From assembly GCA_965637545.1 (NCBI GenBank), contig OZ281497.1, positions 14,260,001 to 14,324,000 of the forward strand: 64,000 nucleotides of DNA. Reading direction: 5' to 3'. The stretch is from Phallusia mammillata. Taxonomy: Eukaryota. Shown one piece after another: positions 1-19,262 of this stretch (positions are counted from its first letter, which is position 1; every line of letters starts with the position of its first letter). The notes beneath the pieces were generated by a model that was not told where the DNA came from, ran no database searches, and was given only the letters and a program-made list of their open reading frames with translations. The position numbers were made by a program, and so were the translations under genes.

Positions 1-3000
1 AGCCTCACTTCCATAACTGTATTGTGATTTTGAAGTGAGCAAAACTGCATTGGATACCTCTGCTGGCTGGTTGCAAAATATTCTGTTACATTCCACAAGT
101 TTGGGCGTCCAAAAACCTAAACCACAATAATTACCAAAGGCCAGGTCATAGATCCAAGTACAATGAATATTACCTCTCGAACAAGTGATGACTTGAACTT
201 GCTTAGCTGCAGTTATGTTGTAACCTTTCCTGCAAATGACTTGCACTCTTGTAAGAATTGGATACATGTATGATGGACTTGAATATGAAATACTCATTAG
301 TTTCATCCTGTACATAGCAGATTTGTTCAAAAGTAAAAATTTGTGTTGTTAAAATTGTTATGCTGTTGTTAAAACTTTTATTACCTTGTTAATTTGGGCA
401 ATGTACAAGTGTATGTACATTTTCTAATGCTTGTACAAAACTGTGCCACATTCTTTTTCACCCAGCACCAAGGTTGGGGAGCATTTGAACCAGGATTTCT
501 GCAATGGTTGTGGTCTGGGAAGTTTGTGTCGCCATTATAATATTTCCTCCAGTTCATACAGTAACCTTTTTCAGTCCAATTGGTATAACCTAAAAAGTAA
601 GGCTGTAGAAAATGCTTTTCTGGCAAATGTTTGCAGGCATTGGAGCATTATTTTTTACTAGGATGCCAAATGTTTTTTTCAGGTTTTATTCATGCTAACT
701 TTAGTAGAAAAAAATTGCCATTCCAGAAAACCAGAACATGTTAAAACCTATAACTGCTATTTTAGGGTTATCACACTGGGTTTTATTATTATTTTCTGTA
801 ATAATCTAATGTTAAAAAGTCTTCTGTTTTAAATGATAGTGATTTTGAAACCTTTTTTAAACAGATGATCATTTATCTTCCACAGTTTTTCAGATGACTA
901 CCAAAAAAGAAGACAGAATCAAATAAAGCATAAAAACAGTAACCAAGACACAATAATGTACATTGCATAATCTTAATTTGGAAAGCTTGACCCTTACATA
1001 TAACAAAATCCGCTATAATTGTTACTAAGGTTTCAGAAATACATCAAAAATCTTTAATAATTAGCAATTCTATTCCTTCAAGTCATCTTTTTTGAACCAC
1101 TTTGAAAATCACTTACTTATTAAAACTTGTTTTACTCGGAAAATGATACAAAATAAATACCATAGTAATTCGTCCCAGTCCCATAATAGCACTCTCCAGC
1201 TGATTGACATGTAAATGGCAGTGGTTCTTCTCCAGTGCTTACTTCCCATTCATTTGTGGCAGAATTTAATACCACAACTGCTGGCGTTGGACACCTTTGA
1301 ATTTTTTTTAAATAATTTTTTTTAGAACTTGAAACTTTACAAAAAACTAAATCATTATTAAAGGACTTACTTGGAAACAAGGCAGTCTTGCCATGGTGCA
1401 TCAGGTTTTAAGGTCATACACCAAGCATGGTCCTCTGATTTTTTTCTTAATATTTCATTGGGAGGTCCAGGAGGTTTTCTACATTTGTTACCACTCAAAT
1501 CATACTCAGTGAAATTTTCTGGTTTAAAAGGGTGTCGGTGAGGTCTCTAAAATCACATATTACACAAAAAGACATATTTATACTTTCTACTATCACTACA
1601 TATTTACCATTGAAATCCATGGCTGACATCTTATACCATCCCTGGTCCATGATCTGAAAATTTATTTGCCTGTCGTATAACTACAAAAACCAACCTATTG
1701 CAACAAGTTATTAAAAGCTTGAAAATATGTGAAATGCATTTTAAAAGTTGTTTTGTGCAGACATATTACCATTAACCACAAGTACCTTGTCCCACGATAG
1801 TCTCTCATTTTGACCCATGGCAATGCACAGTCAATCATTTCCGATACACCTACAGGATTTCTTTTCGCAGTTACAGCTTCCCATTTATCAGAATATCCCT
1901 TTTGCTAAACATACACAAAATTAGAAAAAAGAGTTAATAAAGAAGGCACAGGTTTCTTTTAGGTTACTTACTCTCAGGACCAAATTATATGCAATTCCAC
2001 TTTCTGATGTAAATGAATCGAGGGACAAGTAATATTCTTTGTCTGAAGCAAGTCGGATAAAATCTCCCACAACTTCTTCTTTTCCGTGAAGTTGTGCTAC
2101 AGGTTCATATACCCATGACTGATACTTTAACCGAACAACTTCACAAGGTTTTAGCATAACAGAATGTTTTACTCCCTCGTCAGCACTGTCAAGCATTGAA
2201 TCAAGACACATGTCCAAGTTGCGATGTTTAATTTGGGTTAAATATCCTGCAATCCAGATATTTTACACATTAAGTTAAGCTTGTAGGTTAGTTCAGTTCT
2301 AAATTTAAAACTTTTGTTGTGTTGCAAAATAGTCTCAAAAACTCTATGAAGTATTGAATAGAAAACAGCAGTGCAAAGTAAGAACTCAAAAGATTAAGAA
2401 GGTGTCAGGTTTGAATGTACCGTATATACTCACCGATAGGTCGCACTATTAGTTTTGTGTTAAAAAAGTGTAATTTAGAGTTGACTCGCACATAAGTCGC
2501 ACTGAAAATCTAGAGATTTAAAACGCCCTTTTCTCTAGCTTTTTTGCATATATATCTTCCTATTTTGTTTTTTTGTAGCGTTTAATATAATCAAAATATG
2601 TTTATCGACACCTGTGAGCTGTAATAAGTGCATGTACGCAAGCGCCGGCCATACGATTTCATGAATAACCAACTCGCTACAAAACTGTATGTCATTGCCA
2701 GTACATTCGGACCCCTAACCCTGTTTAGCCCAAAACTTTCAATTTTGTTCCGACTAGGTGGTGATTTGCACTTATGTCCAGCGGATAGGTCGCACCTATA
2801 TATTTTTTTTAAATATAAGGAAAAAAGTTGCGTCCTATGCGCGAGTATATACGGTAATCATATGATTTCTCACTCTGATTTAATAAGTTTTGTAAAAGAT
2901 AAAAAACTAATTAAAGTACTTTTTTAACTGGGGTGCATTAAAACTTTATTTTATCAATAACTGCCTTCTAGACACACATGGCAACCCGAAGAAATCAGGT

Positions 3001-6000
3001 TTAGGGTTCTAGAATTGCTAGAGTCAAAGCTGTACAACGGACCATTGGGTTGGAGTCAGTATCGTAGTAAGAATAGCATTACCAGAAAAAAGATTATTTC
3101 ACACTTATAAATTAAGACAGTAAAATTGTTTTAAAAACAACATGTAGAATTTAACCACTTTTAAAACTAGAATAGTGGTTTTCCTATATATTGCCAGTTT
3201 ATATATACTACATCATATTTAACGATGTATCACATATACCATTTACTATATTTATAATGTATATATATGGGGCACCTAAATTTCATTGGGTCCCTATCTT
3301 TTTCCTGGCACTTTATGTCATAATTGTTTCTGCAAGCATAATCTAATGGGTCCCCACACCTGTGCATAAACAGTAGAAATAGGGCACAATCATTGTTAAA
3401 CTGGAATAATGGATTTCCTATATATTCCATTTTACAGAAACGGTGCCATATTTACGCACCATTCATTATAATTCTAAGGGATATATATTTGATGGATACA
3501 TTCAGTATGGTACCAATACTTTTGTGGCCTGTTATAGCATATTTGTTTTTGCAAGCAAAAACCAATGGGTCCCCACACACACATATATTTTGAATTTGTA
3601 ACAGGATGAATGGCGCATGCATATGCTAGGTAAGAATTTGAATTGCACAGATGACATTTGTCGTATTAAAGAAATATTTATAAACTTTTGTTTTGTAACA
3701 GTCACAGCCCTTTGTTTGTTGAATTATGATTTTTAATCAGCACATAGCGTACCCTGGCGCCGTTAAGTTTCTACATACCAACAATACGATTGCTTAGCTG
3801 GGCTTTTTATGTCCAAAACCTGTTCTAAAACAGTTATATTAACGCTTTCAGTTTGAGAAGTCACGTTACACAGGTGTAACAAATCGTACTGCGTTGTCGC
3901 TCTGCGTTTTGAAACACCTATAAGTTGACCTACATTAACGTTTACAACGCAATATAACTAACATCGTAACATCTTAATTCCAACCAGTGAGAAAATGGTC
4001 AAGTGACAACTGCGTTCATGCGTGAAGCAGAGGCATTTTTTATGCGCCACTATCGTCAATCACTCCCATTGCGTCAGCTGTGCACTGAGCGAGCACAAAT
4101 TTGAAAAAAGACAGCATTTAAAAACATATTTTTACTATTACTGGGCTGATTGCACTGAAATTTTTACCAGGCAACAAAGAGCACCCTATCCACAGCTGTG
4201 TAAAATTTCAGCACGTTAAGTCTTGTATTTCTGACCTCATTAACATGTGAACAAACAAACAAATATTTGGGGGTAAAGGGGTGAAAATGGATATATACAA
4301 CTTCAAGTTACAAAATACTTTAAAATACGCTGCAATGTACCAATCAAAAAGTATGAAACTCCAGAATCATCTACTTTAGCAAGTATAGCCGTTTTAAAAA
4401 AATTACGTTTTGGGGGGCTGTGGGTGAACCGAGGGATCAAACGGGGTCAAAATTCACATGGACCATCTTTAGACCAATATCTTTAATGTGTGTAAATTTG
4501 AAAAAGTTTGAACCATTCTTTCTTGACCAAAACGTGGGAACAAATCTGCGTTAAAAATTTCACGTTTTGGGGGGCTGTAGGTGAACCGAGGGATCAAACG
4601 GGGTCAAAATTCACATGGACAATCTTTAGACCAATATCTTTAATGTGTGTAAATTTGAAAAAGTTTAAACCATTCTTTCTTGACCAAAACGTGGGAACAA
4701 ATCTGCGTTAAAAATTTCATGTTTTGGGGGGCTGTGGGTGAACCGAGGGATCAAACGGGGTCAAAATTCACATGGACCATCTTTAGACCAATATCTGTAA
4801 TGTGTGTAAATTTGAAAAAGTTTCAACCATTCTTTCTTGTCCAAACCGTGGGAACAAATCCACGTTAGACGGAAAAAAAGAAAAAATATATGTAGACAAA
4901 AACAATATGTGTCCCCTTCAGGGAAGGGGATCCATAATTAACATTAAAATAATGTAGGCACAAGGTGCAAACAAAACTATTGATGACGGTGATCACTATT
5001 GTGTAAAACACAAATTGGAAAAAGTGTGCATACACAACCTTTCTGACTTTTAGGACAATCCTACATACATAAACAAATAAACGTTAAGTACGTACCTGAC
5101 AGCCACCAAAAGAAAATCGTGTTTTCGACTTCGCAGGGGACAAACACAACTTTAATGTGTACAGATTTATTGCCACTCATCTCTTGTTCAACCTCTGGTT
5201 TTGCACATTTTGTCAAATCAAATGGGCTTTGAAAAACAAACGAGCGTCCAGCAGAACCTCTACTTTCACCTGACTTAGTAAAATCTGTCTCCGCTTGCTC
5301 CGTGAGCTCAGACGACTGTGGCATAAACTGCCATGTGATGTTAGATACACCTACAGTGGGTGTCATACATGCTGAGCTGAGACCTATAATATATTGCAAT
5401 TCAAATCCCTTTAAAACAGAACATTACAAAAATTACCCATGAAGTAATTCTCTGATCTACAGACAATCATATCATATTTACACATAGTAATGATAAAAGG
5501 TTCCTAGAAATTAATAAAACATTTCATGTCAAAAAAGTTAAGAATAAAACTGCACAAATGGGCATACACTTAAGCATATACTTGAAAAAAACATTACATA
5601 CTTGCAGCAATTTAATGGTGAAAACAAGGGCCCAAATAGATGTAAAAAGTGACATGCTTTATTTTTCAAACGTTTAGGCAAATACTCATGCCATCATCAG
5701 TGATCTGCCAAAACGTTTGAAAAATAAAGCATGTCGCTTTTTACGTCTATTTGGGCCGTTATTTTCACCATTAAATTGCTGCAAGTATGTATCGTATTTT
5801 ACGGACCATAAGGCGCAATTTAAATCCTTTTTTTCCTCATAAATTGATCGTGCGCCTTATAAGCCGCCTAATGTATGGATCAAGTAGTGCTTTATTGCCT
5901 ACACTCCAGTACCGATACTATTATTATATAAATAAACCACCGTCTTACACAATAAACTACGGTAAAAGCAACTAGCAACTGTGATATTCACTAGACTCAT

Positions 6001-9000
6001 TTTTTTTGCTCATTGTACTATTGAGACTTGCTTACATTTATTAAGTAACAAGTAAACTTTTATAACCCATACTCCTTAAAATATGTTGCGTTCTATAGCC
6101 CGGTGCGCCTTATGTATGAACAAAAAACTAATCAAAGCAATTTATTGATAGTGCGCTTTATAATTGGGTGCGCTTTATGGTCCGTAAAATACGGTAATGT
6201 TTTTTCATGTATATGCTTATGTTACCATTAAACTTATGAACAGATTCGTATATAGTGCAGCAATTTGTTTTGTTCAGTATTTAACTCTGATAAACAATTA
6301 TACAAAAGTATGCCAAATAAATACCTTTACAACCACAGCGAAGATAAAATCTACTTTGAATATGCAGAAGATTAAAACTTTCCGACCCAACATCAGTTTC
6401 GTGTGGTAACCATCTCCATCTCTGTGAAGGTTTGCTTGAATCACAATCTTCAGCAATCACATACATATGCATTTGGTATGATGACAAACATAGTCCACTT
6501 GCCACATTCATTAACTGTCGATTTCCAAATTTTATCCACCTAAGATAAAAAAATTACCCTTTTACTTTGGTGTGTTGTTAGCAGGCCTGGGGAGTCGGTT
6601 GTCTGTACCTTCGACACCAATTGCTAGAAATTGCATAGGTCTGACTCCGACTTTTGCTTGTTGCTAACAATAGAAAATTATCCTATTCAATCATGCTTGA
6701 TTTAAATGTCTTTTTTGCATAATGTTTAAAACATATGTATTTAATGCTCAACTAAACTCCGACTCACCAGAACCAGTGGTAAGGTACATATGTTTGTAAA
6801 TGCCCACAGAGTTTGCTGCTTTAAATTTTTCACCACATCTTTTATGACATGTTATCACAATCACAAGTAGTCATACCTTTGTGATGAAAGTTCATCGTCA
6901 CAAGGTGTCATATGAATGAGGTTAGAAGAGAGTGAGACAGCATGAGAAAGACAGTTTCCACAGCCTGTAAGAAATTTATATGCACCAGGTGGTGTTTCTG
7001 CCGACATTTTTGAAAATGGGGTGATTCCTGACCCAGGTAACCAGGTGGTAAATAACGAACTTCTCAGGTCAGATATGTACACCTTTGAAAATAAACAAAA
7101 AAAAACATACAAAATTTCAGTAAATAGCATAAAATCTTGGTTATTATTTCATTTTTCTCAACATAAAACTTTAGAAAATGTGTTTCAAATATTTGTTTTA
7201 CCACATATAAGATATAAGAGAATTTATAAACCTAGAAACTCGCTCAAACATTATCAACTTTACAAACACTTTATGTAAATAAATGGCTTTAAAACATTAG
7301 ACTTATGAACAGACCCATGTACAGTGGTCGGTGATGCAACTTTGAAACATACATAAGAACTTCAAGAACCTTTGTTAAAGCATCGAAAGTAAGTTTGTGA
7401 AGGGGACCAGACTCTCTGCTGTCAAACTTCCATCCCGAAAAAATATAATCTTCTGATTCTATCCAATACTGAGACAATTTGCCAAGTGTTCGCTTGCAAG
7501 GAAACAATGCAACAGGATCACCATGTTTGGGAATTCGTGCTGATAAACTAATACACAGCTTGTAACCCATGTTGACGATTGCTTGTGATGACCACCAGAA
7601 AAACCTCTGATTCTTATCACTGAAATCACATCTATCAATCTGAAGTACATGAGTTCTTTTTATAAATCTTGCAACCAAGCAAAAATACTGATCATCTGCC
7701 GAGCGTTGAAGTGAACGAATGAGAAACTGGTGTTGCAGATCAATTTTAGGAAAAACCCTGGCAAAGAAAAATATTTTTATTATTTATTTGTTAAAGTTGA
7801 CAGTTAAAGTTGCTTTAAAACCTAAAACTAACACTCGAAACATATTCTAAACCGTGTTTTATTTTTGAAATTCTAAATCGACTGTGAATAAGATGACTTA
7901 AAAGCATTTTAGTATCTAATGTCTTGTCAAGTAAAACAATAAAATAAATAATACAATCATTGTCCAAAAACATTCTAGATGTTCTGCACTGGAATATTTA
8001 CTGCAATACTAGACTTACAGGACGTACAAACCTGTCTCCAAACCCACTTTCTGGCATGACATCCAAACAATCCGTTACATTGCAAGTAGTTGGGACTCTT
8101 TCACTTCCAGCATAACACCACACGCCTTTCAGATCAAGATTTGGGTTGCGACAGTGATTGTCACCTTCTGGAGGGTCAAGCCCACCAGCTTCCAACCTTT
8201 TTGGTGGTTTGTGTTCTTTTGTATCAGCAGCAACAGACCATTTTTCACATGGAAGTCCATTGCTGGCTGTACGAACTGCCCCAAAAAATGTACTTCCCAA
8301 ACCAGTTACACAACTTGGTTTTTCTACACTTGTGCTGGTCCCCTGAAGACTCCATGGGTGCATTCCACCAACCAACTGACGGTCGTAAGTATAACGCAGA
8401 GTATGTGTATCACTGTCTGGTTGTGGATGCTCCAAGTCCTCAAACATACCTTGATATAAAAACCATGCCAATTGTCCATTTATAAAAATGTCTGTTTTGC
8501 ATTTTTATACATTTTAAGAACACAACAGTTCCTATAGATTAGGTTTTATTTCATAGATAGTATTTAGTTACATATCCTGAGTACAGTATATACCATCAAA
8601 CAAATTTATAAGCCATGCAACATGTTTAACTGTTTTAGTTGCGACTATCTTTTATGCGACGTTAATGTAAATTTTGCTCTTAGTGGTGATGCTACTCTTC
8701 TGGTCTATACCTTGTGCATCAAAAATGCATGCATAAAAAGCATAACATTATGCACTATACATCTAACAGTTAGCGTTCTAGTGATGTTATAAAGTTCATA
8801 CCAATGTAGGACTTCTCAGAATGTCTTTGTAAAAGCAACACACGATTCAGACTCTGCCTGTTTTTGACAGAAGCCAGGGTCCAGTTGTTGGCTGCACAAA
8901 ATGATTGAGCTTCTATGTATGTTTTGGGGTCTGAGAATGCCTAAAATTATAACTTTTTTCAACAAACATGGATCATACACAGTTTAGATAGTCACATACA

Positions 9001-12000
9001 AAAAAGTTTTTTCATTTTCTCATTTAAATTATTTCACTGTAAATACAGTATGTTGTAACATTTTCAAACTATCAACACATGTCAGATGGAATAAGAATTT
9101 AAACAGATCAGCAAACCTGTGTGTTTAAAGAGTCATGGTATATATAAATACACTAAAGTTCCCCATCATTACCCAGTGTTTGTAAAGCATTCATAATAAA
9201 ATTTGCCTTCAGACCGTTTCCAGGGGGTATTTACCTTATAGCAGGTAAAATCGCCTCGATAGAAAAAAGACTGCATAAAATCCCAACCAGGGGGGCAAAA
9301 TATCGGACAGGGTTGAGTGTTGCAAGGGACGGCTTCATAATCAGAGCCATCACAATCACTTCTTCCATACTTCGCGCAAGCCCTTAATACTTTGATGGTA
9401 CCAGTCCCGCAGGTTCGTGAACATTTTGGTGGTGCAACAACTTCCACCCCTAAAATAATATATAACACTGAGGTGGTCCAATACTGAGAGCAAAAAAGGC
9501 TACAATACAGTTAGTTACATAGAGTTGGGGACAAAGATGACTTTTTCTTTTAAAGGAGTAAGTTACCTTGGTTCTAATCAATCCAATGCAGGGGTGTGTG
9601 ACCATTAACACTGATATGTTGAATATAATTAACATAGTTAGACTGCAACTTTTCATTACACAAGGTAAAACTTTACTTGGGTGAAAATTTGCTTTCATCC
9701 ACTACTGAAACTATTGTAATGGTGTTTCAATAGCCATCCTTTTCTGTGTGTTGTAATTCAATCACTGCTTAATTGAGTGCAAATGCAAATAGATATGATA
9801 CAGGACATGGATCATATTTTAATGCAGAGTTACGTTTGCTGACCAGCACGTTATTGATGCATTTCTATTTAGGGCTGTGGCTAAGAAAAACATTTTTTAT
9901 GCAAATCTATTCAAAGACTGCATACATACCATTTTTGCAGGCCACACAAAACTGTGTTAGGCAACATATAAAATGTTTAGGCACCTGGTTTATGACCTTT
10001 GAAAAAAATATTTACAAGATTCACTCATCATCTAAATTCTGATAAAACAGTTTTTTATCAAAATTATGAAACCATCTTTTTTGCCGTTTTTTAATTACCT
10101 CTTTTTGCACAGATGTTAAGCCTGTCAGTGTTAAGCAAATGAAAATCAGTGGAACTGCCACGAGTTTCTCTCATCTCAAGATTTAAGCTAGGTCCACTAT
10201 TACTTATTGCAAGATATTTATGGTTTGGTTTTTCCTTGGGTAAAACATGAAGAAATCTCAATCGAACTCTTAGGGAACGATATTCACCTGCAATAAGTTA
10301 TTTGCAATTAAGTAAATTGTTAAGAAGATACCAAAAAGCGTGCATTATCCTAAAATGATGCAATAAACCACTTGGCAACATTCATTATTCTTTTGATGAA
10401 ACATGCATGTCTTAAAGCAGTTCGTGGATCGAAAAAGTTTGTTTTCTTAGTGTGACAACCCTATGACCAGGGGTATATTAAGGCTAAGGCCTTTCTAGTG
10501 GTTTACTTTAGCTAAAAATAGTTAAATCAGATTTATTTAATCAGTATGACCTTTTAGATAAAACTTTGTGCCATAAATACTTTATTCGCATTTCACATAT
10601 TTATGAAACAAAAATACTGTGTTGATGGCGGCTATTGTAGTATGGCATGATTTTTTGGAACAAGTGGAAAAGTTTGCTAATCACTATGTTAAACTCTGCA
10701 TATTTTTTGTTTTACAGAAATCTCTAGAATTACAAAAGTAGATCAACTTACAGTACCAATTTTGATGTGCATCATCAATGTCACAAGGTTTAAAAATGAC
10801 AATAACCTCTGTCAAATTAGGACCAGTTCGATTTACAGCTAGACATTGCTTTGTAGCTATATGCTCAAGGTTAAAATCAAGCCTCCATTGCCACCAAAAG
10901 TTTTTTAAATCAGGGCTTTTGTGTCCAGGACAGCGTCGAAAAGCCCTTGTGAAAAAAAGTGAATTCCAAGGTCGGTTACGTAATATAAAGTTAACATACA
11001 AATGAGTGATATAATTTGCTCAAAACTCATCAAATGAACAACTTTTTATATATTGAACACAAACAACAAAGTAAAGTATCAGTTTTTTTTGATATCGTCT
11101 CTTAGACTTAGACATTATACCCCATCTTGGCAACATTTAAAAGCAGACTGTTTATACATTTTTTATCCTTACTTTTTTCTGACTATATCATACCAACTCA
11201 CTATGCATTCCCTTGCAATAACTCAGGGAAACAACAAATGTTCGCATTTGCAGCAAAGACAAAAATACCACAGTTGTCAAGTAGTATAGACATCTACAAC
11301 CTGTTTCATACCAAGGTTTAGGTCCCTCAGCTGTTATGTTGGCATCTAAACATTTGTGTGAATTCCAATTCATTAAAACTCGTAAGCCATCCCATCGCAG
11401 TCCAAGGATACAGTTGTCCTCATCTTTTTTATTACGACAATTGTAATATCCACTGCATTCCTGTTCAAAACATATTGTTGCAATAGCAGTAATTAAACAC
11501 TGTAACACTGATATTGTATGATAGTTTTAGTCATTATGAGGTACTGTACTATCAAGGCAAATGCTGGGATCATTATGTTCAAACATTAATGTTGCATGTT
11601 CTACAAACTGTATCCAATTTAAACATAATTTGATAATTTTACAGATTTTGGTGTGCTATGGATACTAGGGTAACTTGTCGACAAGTTATGAGGAAAATAA
11701 AGTAATATATTTTTGTGGCTAGAAGTACAACCGCTTTATCGGTAAACAAAACTGATAACTTAGTTGCAGGCAGGCCCATAAAAGTTTAAACCTAATTTAT
11801 ATCTTGGAGTGCATTTGACCATGTATAATATTACTTCAAAGAATATACTTCTTTGCTTTGTAAATTAAAAAGAGGATACTTTTGTTGCAATTTGTAAACA
11901 TCACTGGAATGATTCCGTGCCAGTTTGAAACAACAATTCTTTTCATTTAAATAACAACAAAAGTTATATATAACTTGCAAACAAACCCTAAAATGGTAAT

Positions 12001-13379
12001 TTATATTTAAAATATGAACAGTACCTTTGACTCATCAACACACTGTCCATCACCACATGAAAATTGCTTTGCAGCACAAGTATGGATGGTTCCCCCAGAT
12101 CTACCACTTGGACTAGATGCGGCTCTTCCACCTGGTTTCAGGTAGATTTCCGAATCATTAGCATTTGTTCTTCCCTGAGGAACACTATATAACAAACAAA
12201 TATGGACATATCACCTAATTGCATAGGGAGGGTGAATCACAAACCATAACCTATCACTTAATCAAAAAATCGTCCGATTTTATATGAGATGGGCGATAGA
12301 GCAGAATGTGGATTTCTATATGAATGTTGCATTATAAAATGCTTTTCTTCAAACATAGTATAACTATTTGAATTTGCATCTGAGGTATATTTAAAAATTA
12401 AACCAAACCATTTAAACCTTACTTGGGACAAGAAAGGATTATAAAAAACACACACAATGCTACCATTTTAGTGGCCATATGCATTTAAGTCGTAAAATTA
12501 CAGATGATTGTGTATAGTTAGAAAACGATTCTCCACATTAGCTATAACCAAAATAGGCTAAGACAGTGGTCGGCAACCGTTGGTCCGCAACCCGGTGCTG
12601 GTTTGCGAGGAGTTTGTTACCGGGCTGTATACTTTTTCAAGTTAAATGCTAACATTTTGCCCATGTATCCCAAGGAAAATCAACTAATTTAAGTGTTTGT
12701 TTTTTGTTTGTTCTTGGTAATTTTTACCTTTTTTTACCTGAACCTTTGACAAAACTAATCGAGTTGCCCTGGCCTAGACCTATGGCACTACACATGCATT
12801 TTTACTTGTATTTTTTTACCTTGTCTCTCTGCAGGGATAGGATGCACAATCCTGCATGTCATATTTAATGCTGTTACAGCCAATGTCTATGCATGATCTG
12901 GTGCGCAGTCTTTTTCCACCCTTACATTCTCTGCTACATTTGCTCCACTTACTCCATGGGCCCCACCTCATAAACAAAAACTCATGTTACAATCTTTCCA
13001 AAACATACGGATTAATACTAAGAATAGCTCCATATGCCTACTATTCTTAAAACATATTAGTATGGACATTGTGGTGCTGTTAAAATTACCTTCTTGCAGG
13101 ATTGCACAATTCACATGTTTGACGACATTGATCAGTCACGAATTGCCAATCACAATGTCCCTGCTCTTTATGGATTGAGCAAAAGTCTCGGTTTAAAGCT
13201 GAATCACTACATGAAAATCCATGGGCAGTTTCATATACGTCCTGACCTTTGCACGGGTAAAGTTCTGCAGATTATTTTCACCTTTGTTTATACCTTTACC
13301 AAAATCATGAACAAAAATGCAAATACTCACCCAAAAAAACGGCAGCAAAGAACATGAAAAAACGTAGGTGGTAGAACAT
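1..13379 (-). CDS. Secreted multidomain mosaic protein, 3'-partial: signal peptide, ShKT, TSP1, LDLa, ricin/CysR, TSP1, split C-type lectin, 3 kringles, 3 further ricin trefoils, CCP/sushi
   Basis: Hand-spliced minus-strand exons, all GT-AG with consistent phases: 13379-13331, 13264-13090, 12966-12820, 12184-12025, 11460-11312, 10945-10752, 10287-10099, 9449-9235, 8940-8802, 8449-8032, 7757-7370, 7082-6877, 6539-6325, 5383-5096, 2246-1972, 1904-1786, 1653-1608, 1546-1371, 1294-1161, 589-385, 307-<1 (4194 nt, 1398 codons). Motifs: MFYHLRFFMFFAAVFL (signal); CSDSALNRDFCSIHKEQGHCDWQFVTDQCRQTCELC (ShKT); WGPWSKWSKCSRECKGGKRLRTRSC (TSP1); CAAKQFSCGDGQCVDESKECSGYYNCRNKKDEDNC (LDLa); NHCRNP..VWC and YRGTRSWTRDGIRCQPW (kringles); CL..C..QRW (ricin); YPILTRVQVICRKGY (CCP). 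Some individual donors, e.g. 7370, are uncertain. Confidence 0.88.
2420..2854. mobile_element. Non-autonomous Tc1/mariner-superfamily MITE (CCGTAT-type TIR, Tc2/Kanga-like)
   Basis: Terminal inverted repeats CCGTATATACTC and GAGTATATACGG, flanked by TA at 2418-2419 and 2855-2856. Internal repeats of ATA(A/G)GTCGCAC. No coding capacity. Lies in an intron of the mosaic gene. Confidence 0.85.
3230..3590. repeat. Dispersed repeat with internally repeated AATGGGTCCCCACAC motif; related inverted copy at ~52118-52160
   Basis: (A)ATGGGTCCCCACAC occurs at ~3346 and ~3565, with a variant at ~3287. TTTGTTTTTGCAAGCAAAAACCAATGGGTCCCCACAC is close to the reverse complement of GTGTGGGGACCCATTAGTTTTTGTTTACAAAAACAA at ~52118. 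Boundaries are approximate. Confidence 0.6.
4090..4938 (+). mobile_element. Helentron/HINE-like non-autonomous element with three 157-bp tandem core repeats and a 3' hairpin
   Basis: Three copies of a unit starting GTTTTGGGGGGCTGT at 4407, 4564 and 4721 (period 157), then an A-rich tract, then hairpin TCCCCTTC-AGG-GAAGGGGA (4912-4930) followed by TCCATAAT. An upstream (CAAA)n microsatellite lies at ~4250. The 5' boundary is approximate. Confidence 0.7.
5595..5791. repeat. Foldback element: 86-bp inverted arms (5 mismatches) with a 25-bp spacer
   Basis: TACATACTTGCAGC...AAACGTTTAGGCA is mirrored by TGCCAAAACGTTT...GCTGCAAGTATGTA. A half-copy of the same family is at ~44270-44365. Confidence 0.9.
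5792..6194. mobile_element. Tc1/mariner-type MITE (CCGTATTTTACGGACCATAA TIR)
   Basis: Left end TCGTATTTTACGGACCATAAGGCGCA and right end TGCGCTTTATGGTCCGTAAAATACGG, with TA on both flanks (5790-5791, 6195-6196). Confidence 0.85.
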
Positions 13380-13701
13380 CTTACAGCATTTTAACACTTG
13401 GAAAAGAACGCTATTTTGGCAATTCAATGCATTACGGTTCAATCGTTCTGCAGACATCTAAACAGTCGCGCTATTTACAATTTTCTGCATGACCGAGCAC
13501 GAAGTAAAGTCGTTCATGCATTACGTTGTGCAACATGTACTTTTTTTACAAGAAAGCATTTGTCATGTAAGTCGCAAAAACTATACAACTAAATAAAATG
13601 ATTTTGGTTGAAATGTAGACTGGTTTCGTTGGCGAATCACAATTTACGTAATCTGTGGTGCGTTGCCCCCTAGTGTTGACTAATAAATCGTATCTTTTTC
13701 C

Positions 13702-13726
13702 TTGGCGCCCAAAGAGTTTTTGGCGC
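13702..13726. promoter_or_regulatory. Paired E2F-like sites in the divergent promoter region between the mosaic gene and ASF1
   Basis: TTGGCGCCCAAA at 13702-13713 and a perfect TTTGGCGC at 13719-13726 (E2F consensus TTTSSCGC). Vertebrate ASF1B is a known E2F target. Confidence 0.5.
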
Positions 13727-14718
13727 TATTCGGAATTTTGTGAGATCTGAGAACAATAGAGATGGACGGTGGTCGTGGTTCATATTTGTGATTACTCTTT
13801 CTTAAAATGGCCTCTGGTAGACTAAAAACTTGCAAAGTTGCACGTAAGGGGTTGAGTATGTGCCATGCATTTCGGAGTAGTATGTTATAATTATATTAAT
13901 TGGTATATTAACGAAATACCGATAGACCACAAGACGAAGAGTCGAAGACGTTAGTGCCTAAAGTTTATCCATAAATCCTTACCACTAACCGCGGCAAAGA
14001 ATTTAGAAAATGTGAACCGGAGTTGAGTTTCTTTCTTTAGCTTGGAACATACTGAATATACTCTTTAAAAGTAAATTGTATGACATGTTGTATAAATGTA
14101 CTGTAGTATGTGTATATTTTTGACTTCTGAAATTGTACTTGTCATTTGTCACATCCCAGAAAGCATCTAATCTTAAATTTTTTTCTGGCCACCAAACAAC
14201 CTGAGACCGTTTTCTAAACAATCTAAACATGTCCTTTGACTGTAACATGTTTTGTAACAGATTACTTGTTTGTGTACATTTCAAAAACCCTGGCTGATAC
14301 CACATGTCTAAAAAAGGGTTGAATATAAGTTTTCAAAGTCGGGCGATTTTCATTTGTTATTCACAACATTAGTGGGATAATGTGTGATGTGAATAGTTAC
14401 ACACTTAAATTTCTGTTTTGTTTTGTGCATTGTTGTCAGTTAAAACATTTTTCTTCATTACACAAGGAACTATACCTTATGTTGCCTAATTTTTAAAACT
14501 GATAAATGTTTAAACCAGCCAAAAAGTGTGACCCAAAACTTTATTTTTGACATGTGTCTCATTATTGTCATTAATCAGTTGACTAGATACATTCCCTCAA
14601 ATATATAGCAGATATGAAAAGTGTGAAAGACAAATAATAAACTGGATAAATATACAAGAACATGCAAAAATAAGAATTAATTTCCTAACCTTTTTCCTTT
14701 CATTCCAGAAACATAAAA

Positions 14719-15974
14719 ATGACTAAAGTACAAATTGTAAATGTTGAAGTTCTAGATAATCCCTCAAATTTTTACAATCCATTTCAATTTCAAATTACAT
14801 TTGATTGTCTGGAGAATCTAAGAGATGGTAAGAGACTGTGAAAACAACTATAAAAGCGTTACTTGATGCTTATGTGTGTTTTTGCAGAAAAAATGCAATA
14901 CTTTGGTGTGAACACCTTTTTTATTTCCTCTGTTGTTTTTATTAGATTTAGAATGGAAAATTGTTTATGTTGGTTCTGCTGAAAGTGAAGCATTTGATCA
15001 GATTCTAGATTCTGTTTTGGTTGGACCTGTACCTGCCGGTAGACATAAATTTGTATTTCAGGTAATGCTTGTATTACAAAATGGAATGCTTAATAAAGTG
15101 ATAAGACTGAACACAATTGTATGTTCAGGCGGAACCACCAAAGCCGGAGCGAATTCCAGTTGAGGATGTTGTTGGTGTTACCATTGTTATTTTAACTTGT
15201 ACATATCATGGTCATGAATTTGTCAGAGTGGGTTACTATGTTAACAACGAGTATTCTGATCCTGAACTACGGGAAAACCCACCAGATAAGCCAGATTTTA
15301 CAAAGGTAAAATGTAAGGACATGACCTTTAAGCCATGAACTTTTAAGCGGCAGCTTACTACTGCTCCTTGAAATATTTGAATTTAATTCTGATTTCATGT
15401 TCTAGGCTTTAATTCTAAAGTATGGATGTTCATGACAATACTACAGCAATATTGTGAGGTTACTTGTTACCCAAAGCAGTCTCATCTACCGCAATATAGT
15501 TAAAACTTATTTTTGGTGTTTTTAAACTGCAAAAAACAGTTTGTTGGTGAGGGGCAACCATATAAAGTTTTACAACCACTGTTACAAACATAGCACTATT
15601 AACCGTATAAACTAATTTTGCAGCTGGTAAGAAACATTTTGAGCAGTGAACCACGTGTTACAAGGTTCAAAATAAACTGGGATGACAGTGCCACATCTAA
15701 TGAGCAGCAGTCAGGGCCACCCATGTTTGAAGGCAACGTTCCCCCATCACCACCACCAGGAGTGCAATACAGTGAATCAATGTTAGAAGACATTCAACAA
15801 GCTATGTGTGAAGTGTCAAAGGATTCTTTAAAGTCAGGCCATGACTCCAACACTTCTAAAGCTGCCATGAGTAATGGTGAGAACTTTCAGAGTAATGGGC
15901 CTGTAAACAGACAGTTTCCTCCATGTTTGGAAAACTCTATTGATGCAATGGAGGCACAAATGCTTGTGGAATAA
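14719..15974 (+). CDS. ASF1: Histone H3-H4 chaperone ASF1 (250 aa)
   Basis: join(14719..14827,14946..15061,15129..15305,15624..15974). Translation: [79 protein letters not shown]...[13 protein letters not shown]...[15 protein letters not shown] introns with consistent phases. Confidence 0.98.
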
Positions 15975-18831: not shown

Positions 18832-19262
18832 TTACACAGAGTCACAGACAGTGGCGTATCTAGGATCGTTTTTAGGGGGGGCATTTGAATTAGAATTTAT
18901 GAGGCAACTTTCAAAGACCAATCTTTTCGACCAATTCGGTTCTTGCTTCAAAATTTGGGCATCGTTCCAATGAATGCGGTGATCACATTCCAAAACGTGT
19001 TCGCATAAGGCGGACTTGTTGACGTCCATGTTTTTGACTGCCACTTTGTGTTCCTTGAGGCGTGAATTTAGATTTCGCCTAGTTTGGCCAATGTATACCA
19101 TATTACAATCACGACAAGGGACCTGGTAAACAACTCCTGTGGTATAGTGGCATCTTCAGGTTTTGGTAGCAACTGTCCAATTGTTTTAAGGGGTTTCATT
19201 GCCACTTTTACCCCAGCGTCGTTCAAGATTCGTTTGAAAATATGGGTGGTGACAAGAAGACG
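18832..19262 (-). mobile_element. Penelope-like retroelement fragment (C-terminal GIY-YIG endonuclease), 5'-truncated and frameshifted
   Basis: ILNDAGVKVAMKPLKTIGQLLPKPEDA, then a frameshift, then GVVYQVPCRDCNMVYIGQTRRNLNSRLKEH...SALCEH...DH...RLVFES, which is the typical PLE VVY-CxxC-YIG layout. No RT domain is present. Confidence 0.88.

Follow-up and report, generated by a model that had tools for sequence, protein, structure and literature searches.

Apparent splitting of a C-type lectin domain by a 666-residue kringle-ricin-kringle insert in a large mosaic gene of Phallusia mammillata

Two halves of a CTL domain and the intervening insert

The stretch of DNA analysed here (the window; 64,000 nucleotides, C4:14260001-14324000 of the 240-Mb Phallusia mammillata assembly) contains a minus-strand, intron-rich animal gene in which two halves of a C-type lectin (CTL) domain, CTL1, are separated by a 666-residue insert. 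The N-half (residues 406 to 518) comprises the beta1-alpha1-alpha2-beta2 part of the fold with the alpha1 cysteine present. The insert (residues 519 to 1184) consists of five domains, a kringle, three ricin-type trefoils and a second kringle, and is followed by a 28-residue CTL-like segment, the C-half, in which W1199 and C1212 have the canonical spacing of 13 residues. The sequence evidence makes it probable that the two segments fold as one discontinuous CTL domain, whose halves would pack together and share a C441-C1212 disulfide. A split CTL had been proposed from the letters of the window alone (the original prediction) and is now supported by a C-half in a paralog, by conservation of the N-half and adjoining loop stub in a metagenome contig (L026), by a second split domain in the same gene (CTL2) and by a census of cysteines. 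The features concerned are as follows.

9235..9449, minus strand: exon 8, TSP1 repeat b and start of CTL1 (C406 at 9297, C424; strand beta1) (splice model, Pfam)
8802..8940, minus strand: exon 9, CTL1 alpha1 with C441 (codon 8898-8896), alpha2 and WIGL-like strand (SYIG) (N-half, 11.4 bits with the own-genome CTL model)
8313..8449, minus strand: CTL1 long-loop stub, residues 473 to 518, ending at the insertion point (54% identity to L026 over 39 residues)
8067..8312, minus strand: kringle 1 (C519-C600), in the same exon as the loop stub (Pfam Kringle, 1.1e-12)
1972..7757, minus strand: three ricin-type beta-trefoils (exons 7757-7370, 7082-6877, 6539-6325, 5383-5096 and 2246-1972)
1291..1904, minus strand: kringle 2 (C1095-C1184; exons 1904-1786, 1653-1608 and 1546-1371 plus the first codon of exon 19), with six cysteines
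1204..1290, minus strand: CTL1 C-half, residues 1185 to 1213, with beta3, beta4 (W1199), Gly1204 and beta5 with C1212 (codon 1209-1207)

The gene model was computed from the genomic sequence. Joined from an ATG at 13379, 22 exons yield 1,426 codons, stop-free and with GT-AG sites throughout; with nine further exons below the window (L001), the model reaches 1,896 residues, still without a stop. Exact exon lengths may vary by a few residues, because several donors were picked for phase fit. The spliced model reproduces the residue numbers given earlier for C406, C424, C441, C519 and C1212 and, together with a Pfam scan made exon by exon (25 exon frames), confirms the predicted order of CTL N-part, kringle, three ricin domains, kringle and CTL-like C-part.

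Both kringles are six-cysteine modules with a Pfam Kringle match. Profile positions 1-79 align with kringle 1 from C519 onward, and kringle 2 is matched on one exon (0.0045). As kringle 1 holds exactly six cysteines (519-600) and needs C519 as its first, C519 is ruled out as a leftover CTL cysteine, a correction to the original prediction. The Ricin_B_lectin matches on the exons at 7757 (4.9e-6), 6539 (1.7e-4) and 2246 (0.0029) reach at best 27.2 bits, all below the Pfam cut-off of 29 bits. Among named proteins, ricin 1 is closest to a fish protein labelled MRC1, and the most probable role of the trefoils would be to bind glycans. The introns of the insert also contain three copies of a 157-bp unit and an inverted-repeat element (window 4397-4867 and 5538-6226), both very deep in a DNA run.

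The split could exist in the gene model only, if the transcript skipped the insert or used other exons or if the assembly were misjoined at repeat-rich introns. DNA contigs from run X9, which may be the source sample, are identical to the window over 1-2446, 4912-5457 and 6228-14000, yet no single listed DNA contig bridges 2446-6228. Two runs that look RNA-like (taken for RNA as a guess) gave four short contigs of low depth. These fall within predicted exons or at their borders, and two of the four end within 2 bases of predicted splice sites, but none shows an exon junction. However, the junctions of CTL with kringle 1 and of kringle 2 with CTL both lie inside exons, the first also falls within one exon in L026 and the second within one exon in the paralog, the exon order of L026 is identical, and the introns hold no hidden CTL halves. 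Over window 1-9449, with introns counted in, the natural frames of the minus strand hold no second CTL N-half (next match, E=1.1) and no canonical CTL C-half (best score 2.8 over 2,519 positions), as the original prediction had it both for the region between the halves and for that following kringle 1. Hidden exons completing either half were also rejected: the introns, scanned in 352 frames taken from the window and from L026, contain neither a second N-half nor a canonical C-half. An artefact of the model is the least probable of the alternatives weighed here.

Conservation of the N-half and loop stub

The CTL1 exons of the window have no Pfam Lectin_C match in single-exon scans. The counterpart of exon 9 in L026 (L026:5132-5272) matches Lectin_C with E=4.7e-4 over profile positions 2-45 of 107, at 21.3 bits against a cut-off of 22.6. 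The loop stub aligns with the W.DG...nW stretch of intact CTLs at a nonsignificant E of 0.23. L026, the single locus obtained from 140 pattern matches, parallels the window exon for exon from the CTL N-half through ricin 3, in unchanged order and at about 40% identity, including the complete set of ricin exons of the insert. As in the window, its loop stub continues into kringle 1 inside one exon. Identity between the two is highest in the loop stub (54%), with 42% in the N-half exon and likewise in ricin 1, and 38% in kringle 1. In a further relative, P0011, a single frame read by eye shows the stub, then a kringle-like stretch that is shortened, then ricin 1.

These figures bear on the possibility that the halves are remnants of two CTLs, left as linkers with no joint fold when part of a mosaic gene rich in repeats was deleted. 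Junctions of a CTL with a following kringle are present in L071, an ordinary gene of the mannose-receptor type in this genome, so the truncated CTL before kringle 3 could be such a leftover, and the C-half of the window is degenerate and nonsignificant in whole-protein scans. Against this, the N-half and loop stub are conserved as much as, or more than, the inserted domains, tryptophan, glycine and end cysteine are kept in a paralog segment of 28% identity, the split pattern occurs twice per gene, and two free extracellular cysteines would be left. We consider this explanation unlikely.

The C-half in the window and in a paralog

A genome search with exon 19, which encodes the C-half, returned two matches, exon 19 itself and C2:25847441 (32% identity, E=0.001). 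The second belongs to a paralogous gene on the plus strand (L067-L069 and L072; C2:25.837-25.868 Mb) with the order TSP1, LDLa, ricin, TSP1, CTL N-half, ricins, kringle, C-half segment, kringle and sushi. Its loop stub directly precedes a ricin exon, and kringle 1 is apparently absent, giving an insert of roughly 520 residues (both by eye in an unspliced three-frame display). In the same gene (L069 about 8383-8880), more ricin-like and possibly CTL-like exons lie among sushi repeats.

The window and paralog segments have in common W, Gly at the second inner-cysteine position (Gly1204 in the window) and the end Cys. Both CTL1 copies depart from the canonical arrangement in which an inner disulfide brackets beta3-beta4, and the observation that the C-part has lost both inner cysteines and kept the terminal one extends to both genes. 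A C-terminal profile of three blocks was built from 59 of 60 loci picked by hand among 149 Lectin_C matches; L015 was dropped, having no inner cysteines. Among 9,830 positions in natural frames over 40 kb, the inter-kringle segment of the paralog ranks first, with scores of 8.0 over all columns and 17.9 with the inner-cysteine columns masked (training members, 9.2-43.6). The location of the tested segment had been fixed beforehand from the eye of the earlier reader, and none of 2,000 shuffles within the 30-residue inter-kringle segment reaches the CTL C-half score of the window, that of the paralog segment or that of the pair. All three PDB matches of the paralog segment at E of 10 or less are C-termini of C-type lectin-like domains (CTLDs) in PLA2R and LY75 (E 1.1-2.8), and a profile of the two segments aligns in register with 45 intact CTL C-termini (pairwise hhalign E=9.4e-4, probability 22%).

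Several results weigh against a joint fold. A hidden Markov model (HMM) of 19 intact CTLs from the same genome (one of 20 was dropped for a wrong frame) gives the joined halves 10.6 bits, compared with 11.4 for the N-half alone and -0.8 for the C-half, so that the gain on joining looked for in the original prediction did not appear, and 708 of 1,000 shuffles of the C-half equalled the joined score. On the C-terminal profile, the C1212 segment ranks 8th of 1,849 positions with all columns and 2nd with the inner-cysteine columns masked, whole-protein shuffles reach its scores in 60/60 and 46/60 cases, respectively, and three intron or off-frame positions exceed it in the masked scan. The window C-half has no Pfam match and no CTL among its 22 PDB matches, 0 of the 4 PDB matches of the CTL2 C-half are CTLs, and the two best of 10 PDB matches of the two-segment profile are not CTLs, although six of the 10 are (E 0.28-4.7). 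In addition, the C-half has been seen in one genome only (two genes), because L026 stops short of kringle 2, and the splice model is a computation whose source is not cDNA. The HMM comparison has little power, since it also failed for CTL2, whose C-half keeps three cysteines (33.2 bits joined versus 32.7, no real gain). The masked shuffles place the window C-half, taken alone, within chance. The TAL-effector matches that make up 21 of the 22 PDB matches were rejected as summed repeats, each stretch having an E value of >3,000. An Atlas search with exon 19 found at best a sushi-like match (0.81), under the useful level.

A second split CTL and the cysteine census

The same gene contains CTL2 at L001:9608-7190 (C4:14257190-14259608, minus strand). 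Its N-half (residues 1417 to 1506; HMM, 32.7 bits; Pfam, 0.016) is separated from its C-half by about 290 residues, comprising a six-cysteine domain that we take to be of ricin type and a six-cysteine stretch presumed WSC-like from its cysteine pattern; Pfam found no WSC match on the exons of this insert. The C-half keeps C1804, C1822 and C1831, including the inner pair C1804/C1822, and ranks first of 1,849 positions on the C-terminal profile, with 3 of 60 shuffles reaching its score and an hhalign E of 0.013. A genome search for a paralog of the CTL2 C-half exon found none; by eye, the C2 paralog has the same CTL2 layout, with the C-half interrupted by an intron.

A census of cysteines over residues 24 to 1835, with segment boundaries set by the analyst, found an even number in 14 of 18 segments. 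The odd segments are the CTL1 N-half (3), CTL1 C-half (1), CTL2 N-half (3) and CTL2 C-half (3), and pairing of C441 with C1212 and of C1448 with C1831 would leave no free cysteine. This pairing corresponds to the outer-bond pattern of CTLDs, as given in PMC6272133.

Alternatively, each half could be completed by another partner, the CTL1 N-half by the CTL2 C-half or by the C-half of a second chain in a domain-swapped dimer. Loop swapping in CTLDs is on record (PMC6272133), and our scoring is blind to partner, the CTL1 N-half with the CTL2 C-half giving 10.5 bits and the CTL2 N-half with the CTL1 C-half 33.6, comparable to the native pairs. Nevertheless, simple nesting needs no extra assumption, and each C-half comes after its own insert and directly before the next unrelated module. 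We regard an exchange of partners as somewhat less likely even than the survival of remnants.

Proposed structure of CTL1

In the preferred reading, a discontinuous domain, the C441-C1212 disulfide would close a CTL-like core with the strand pairing of intact CTLDs, in which beta1 (N-half) would lie against beta5 (C-half) and beta2 against beta3-beta4. The kringle-ricin-kringle block would protrude from the long loop of CTL1 as a side branch. Closure is geometrically plausible, since the N and C termini are adjacent in kringles and in beta-trefoils. The joint loss of the inner cysteines in both genes would fit a loop unpinned from the core, and an intact CTL of the same genome without both of them (L015:140-373) indicates that a CTL can dispense with the pair. 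EPN/QPD and WND motifs are absent from the model sequence; without these motifs and the inner pair, CTL1 is predicted to have no calcium-mediated sugar binding. It would probably act instead as a structural socket fixing lectin and kringle modules on a very large membrane receptor. According to PMC6272133 and PMC5842395, the long loop between beta2 and beta3 may project from the core, and compact CTLDs do without it. AlphaFold2 with a 93-residue paralog frame gave a pLDDT of 37 (low confidence, single-sequence input), and a complex prediction for four exon-encoded fragments scored 0.03 with no alignments supplied.

The insert is variable, in that the paralog apparently has no kringle 1 and CTL2 carries a ricin and WSC-like block. 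In CTL1 and CTL2 alike, the insert holds ricin domains adjoining its N-side junction or close to it, a feature suggestive of a single ancestral insertion that later underwent internal duplication and a change of cargo. We lean, with reserve, towards a conserved animal receptor family in which the CTL fold serves as a modular socket, twice per protein, for interchangeable cassettes of about 290 to 666 residues derived from one ancestral ricin-into-CTL insertion.

Relationship to known systems

The CTL fold is a much-studied extracellular module and is taken as a continuous unit of about 120 residues. CTL1 resembles the non-calcium-binding forms of Lectin_C in its N-terminal cysteine pair, alpha1 cysteine, WIGL-like strand and spacing of W and terminal F/Y-x-C. 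It differs from Lectin_C domains in the 666 residues within its long loop, the loss of the inner disulfide and the absence of EPN/QPD or WND.

Members of the mannose receptor family have a ricin domain and FN2, followed by tandem intact CTLDs. This family (MRC1, PLA2R, LY75) shares ricin-type domains and CTLDs with the gene described here and provides the closest PDB matches of the C-half, but its ricin domain precedes intact CTLDs, whereas here the ricins lie inside a CTLD. In the gelatinases MMP-2 and MMP-9, the protease domain carries an insert of about 175 residues made up of several small FN2 modules (kringle-related); the present case is likewise an insertion of disulfide modules in a host domain, but with a lectin host and 666 residues. 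Polycystin-1 family proteins have a REJ/GPS region, 11 membrane helices and a PLAT domain placed after the first of these. Polycystin-1-like receptors have in common with this gene a huge mosaic ectodomain with a CTL, and the last open frame of the gene bears a resemblance to PLAT-domain clusters, with hydrophobic stretches behind it; unlike them, this gene has many sushi-like repeats. In the CTLDs of Nkrp1a, the mannose receptor and snake venoms, the beta2-beta3 loop leaves the core while the fold stays intact, as proposed here, but the loop there is a short piece of the CTLD and not a set of whole folded domains (PMC6272133).

A word-index protein search found no relative. A HMMER search of representative proteins gave nine. 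Six were relatives the size of an exon, and the other three were a repeat protein, a ricin protein unrelated to this gene and the fish MRC1-labelled protein, with no full-length ortholog among them. Neither a split CTLD nor this gene was described in the full-text literature searched, a body that lacks the majority of subscription papers, among them the 2005 CTLD review.

If CTL1 is indeed one domain, the role of the long loop would widen from calcium and sugar binding to the branching of protein architecture, with five inserted domains in a host CTL and with splits at two places, in two genes, with differing cargo. Annotation in the style of Pfam would overlook split CTLs, which may be widespread; because per-domain annotation reports fragments only, such cases may be missing from the CTL counts of invertebrate genomes. 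The insertion site would also lend itself to the display of engineered domains.

Remainder of the gene and neighbouring observations

The domain order before the insert is ShK-like, TSP1, LDLa, ricin, TSP1 and CTL1 N-half, and that after kringle 2 is the one-cysteine segment with C1212, kringle 3, two sushi repeats and CTL2. The remaining features of the window are as follows.

13331..13379, minus strand: exon 1, start codon and likely signal peptide (hydrophobic N terminus by reading)
13090..13264, minus strand: ShK-like domain exon (Pfam ShK E=0.0089, below cut-off)
12820..12966, minus strand: TSP1 repeat a (Pfam TSP_1, 6e-5)
10099..12184, minus strand: LDLa and N-terminal ricin-type trefoil, four exons, residues 124 to 354 (Pfam Ldl_recept_a, 0.0014; Ricin_B_lectin, 0.0061)
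385..1191, minus strand: kringle 3 (C1218-C1285), outside the insert, and start of the first sushi repeat (Pfam Kringle, 0.0008)
1..307, minus strand: sushi repeats 1 and 2

Below the window (L001, L002, L005), the gene runs on through split CTL2, a weak F5/8-type match downstream of it (Pfam, 0.041) and many sushi-like exons to a last open frame of 954 codons (L005:2383-5244) with hydrophobic stretches. This frame resembles PLAT-domain clusters (Atlas 0.88, 194/256 features) and has no Pfam or PDB match, so that a polycystin-1-like receptor is only a lead for the identity of the gene. The product is a giant protein, likely located at the cell surface.

An intron of the gene (L002:6739-9195) contains reverse-transcriptase-like open frames of 591 and 227 residues, which we take from their motifs to be Penelope-like, and window 18835-19262 holds a fragment similar to them. 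Elsewhere, L070-L071 (C3:23.93-23.95 Mb) is a gene resembling those of mannose receptors, in which the CTLs are intact and one of them is directly followed by a kringle-like module. An intronless frame of 1,782 codons at L003:2810-8155, unusual for an intron-rich genome, encodes a ricin-like domain, then repeats of FN2-like, TSP1-like and kringle modules, with a hydrophobic C terminus (by eye except for the kringles). Plus-strand exons at window 14912-15335, similar to the histone chaperone ASF1, lie head to head with the split-CTL gene, about 1.5 kb from its start.

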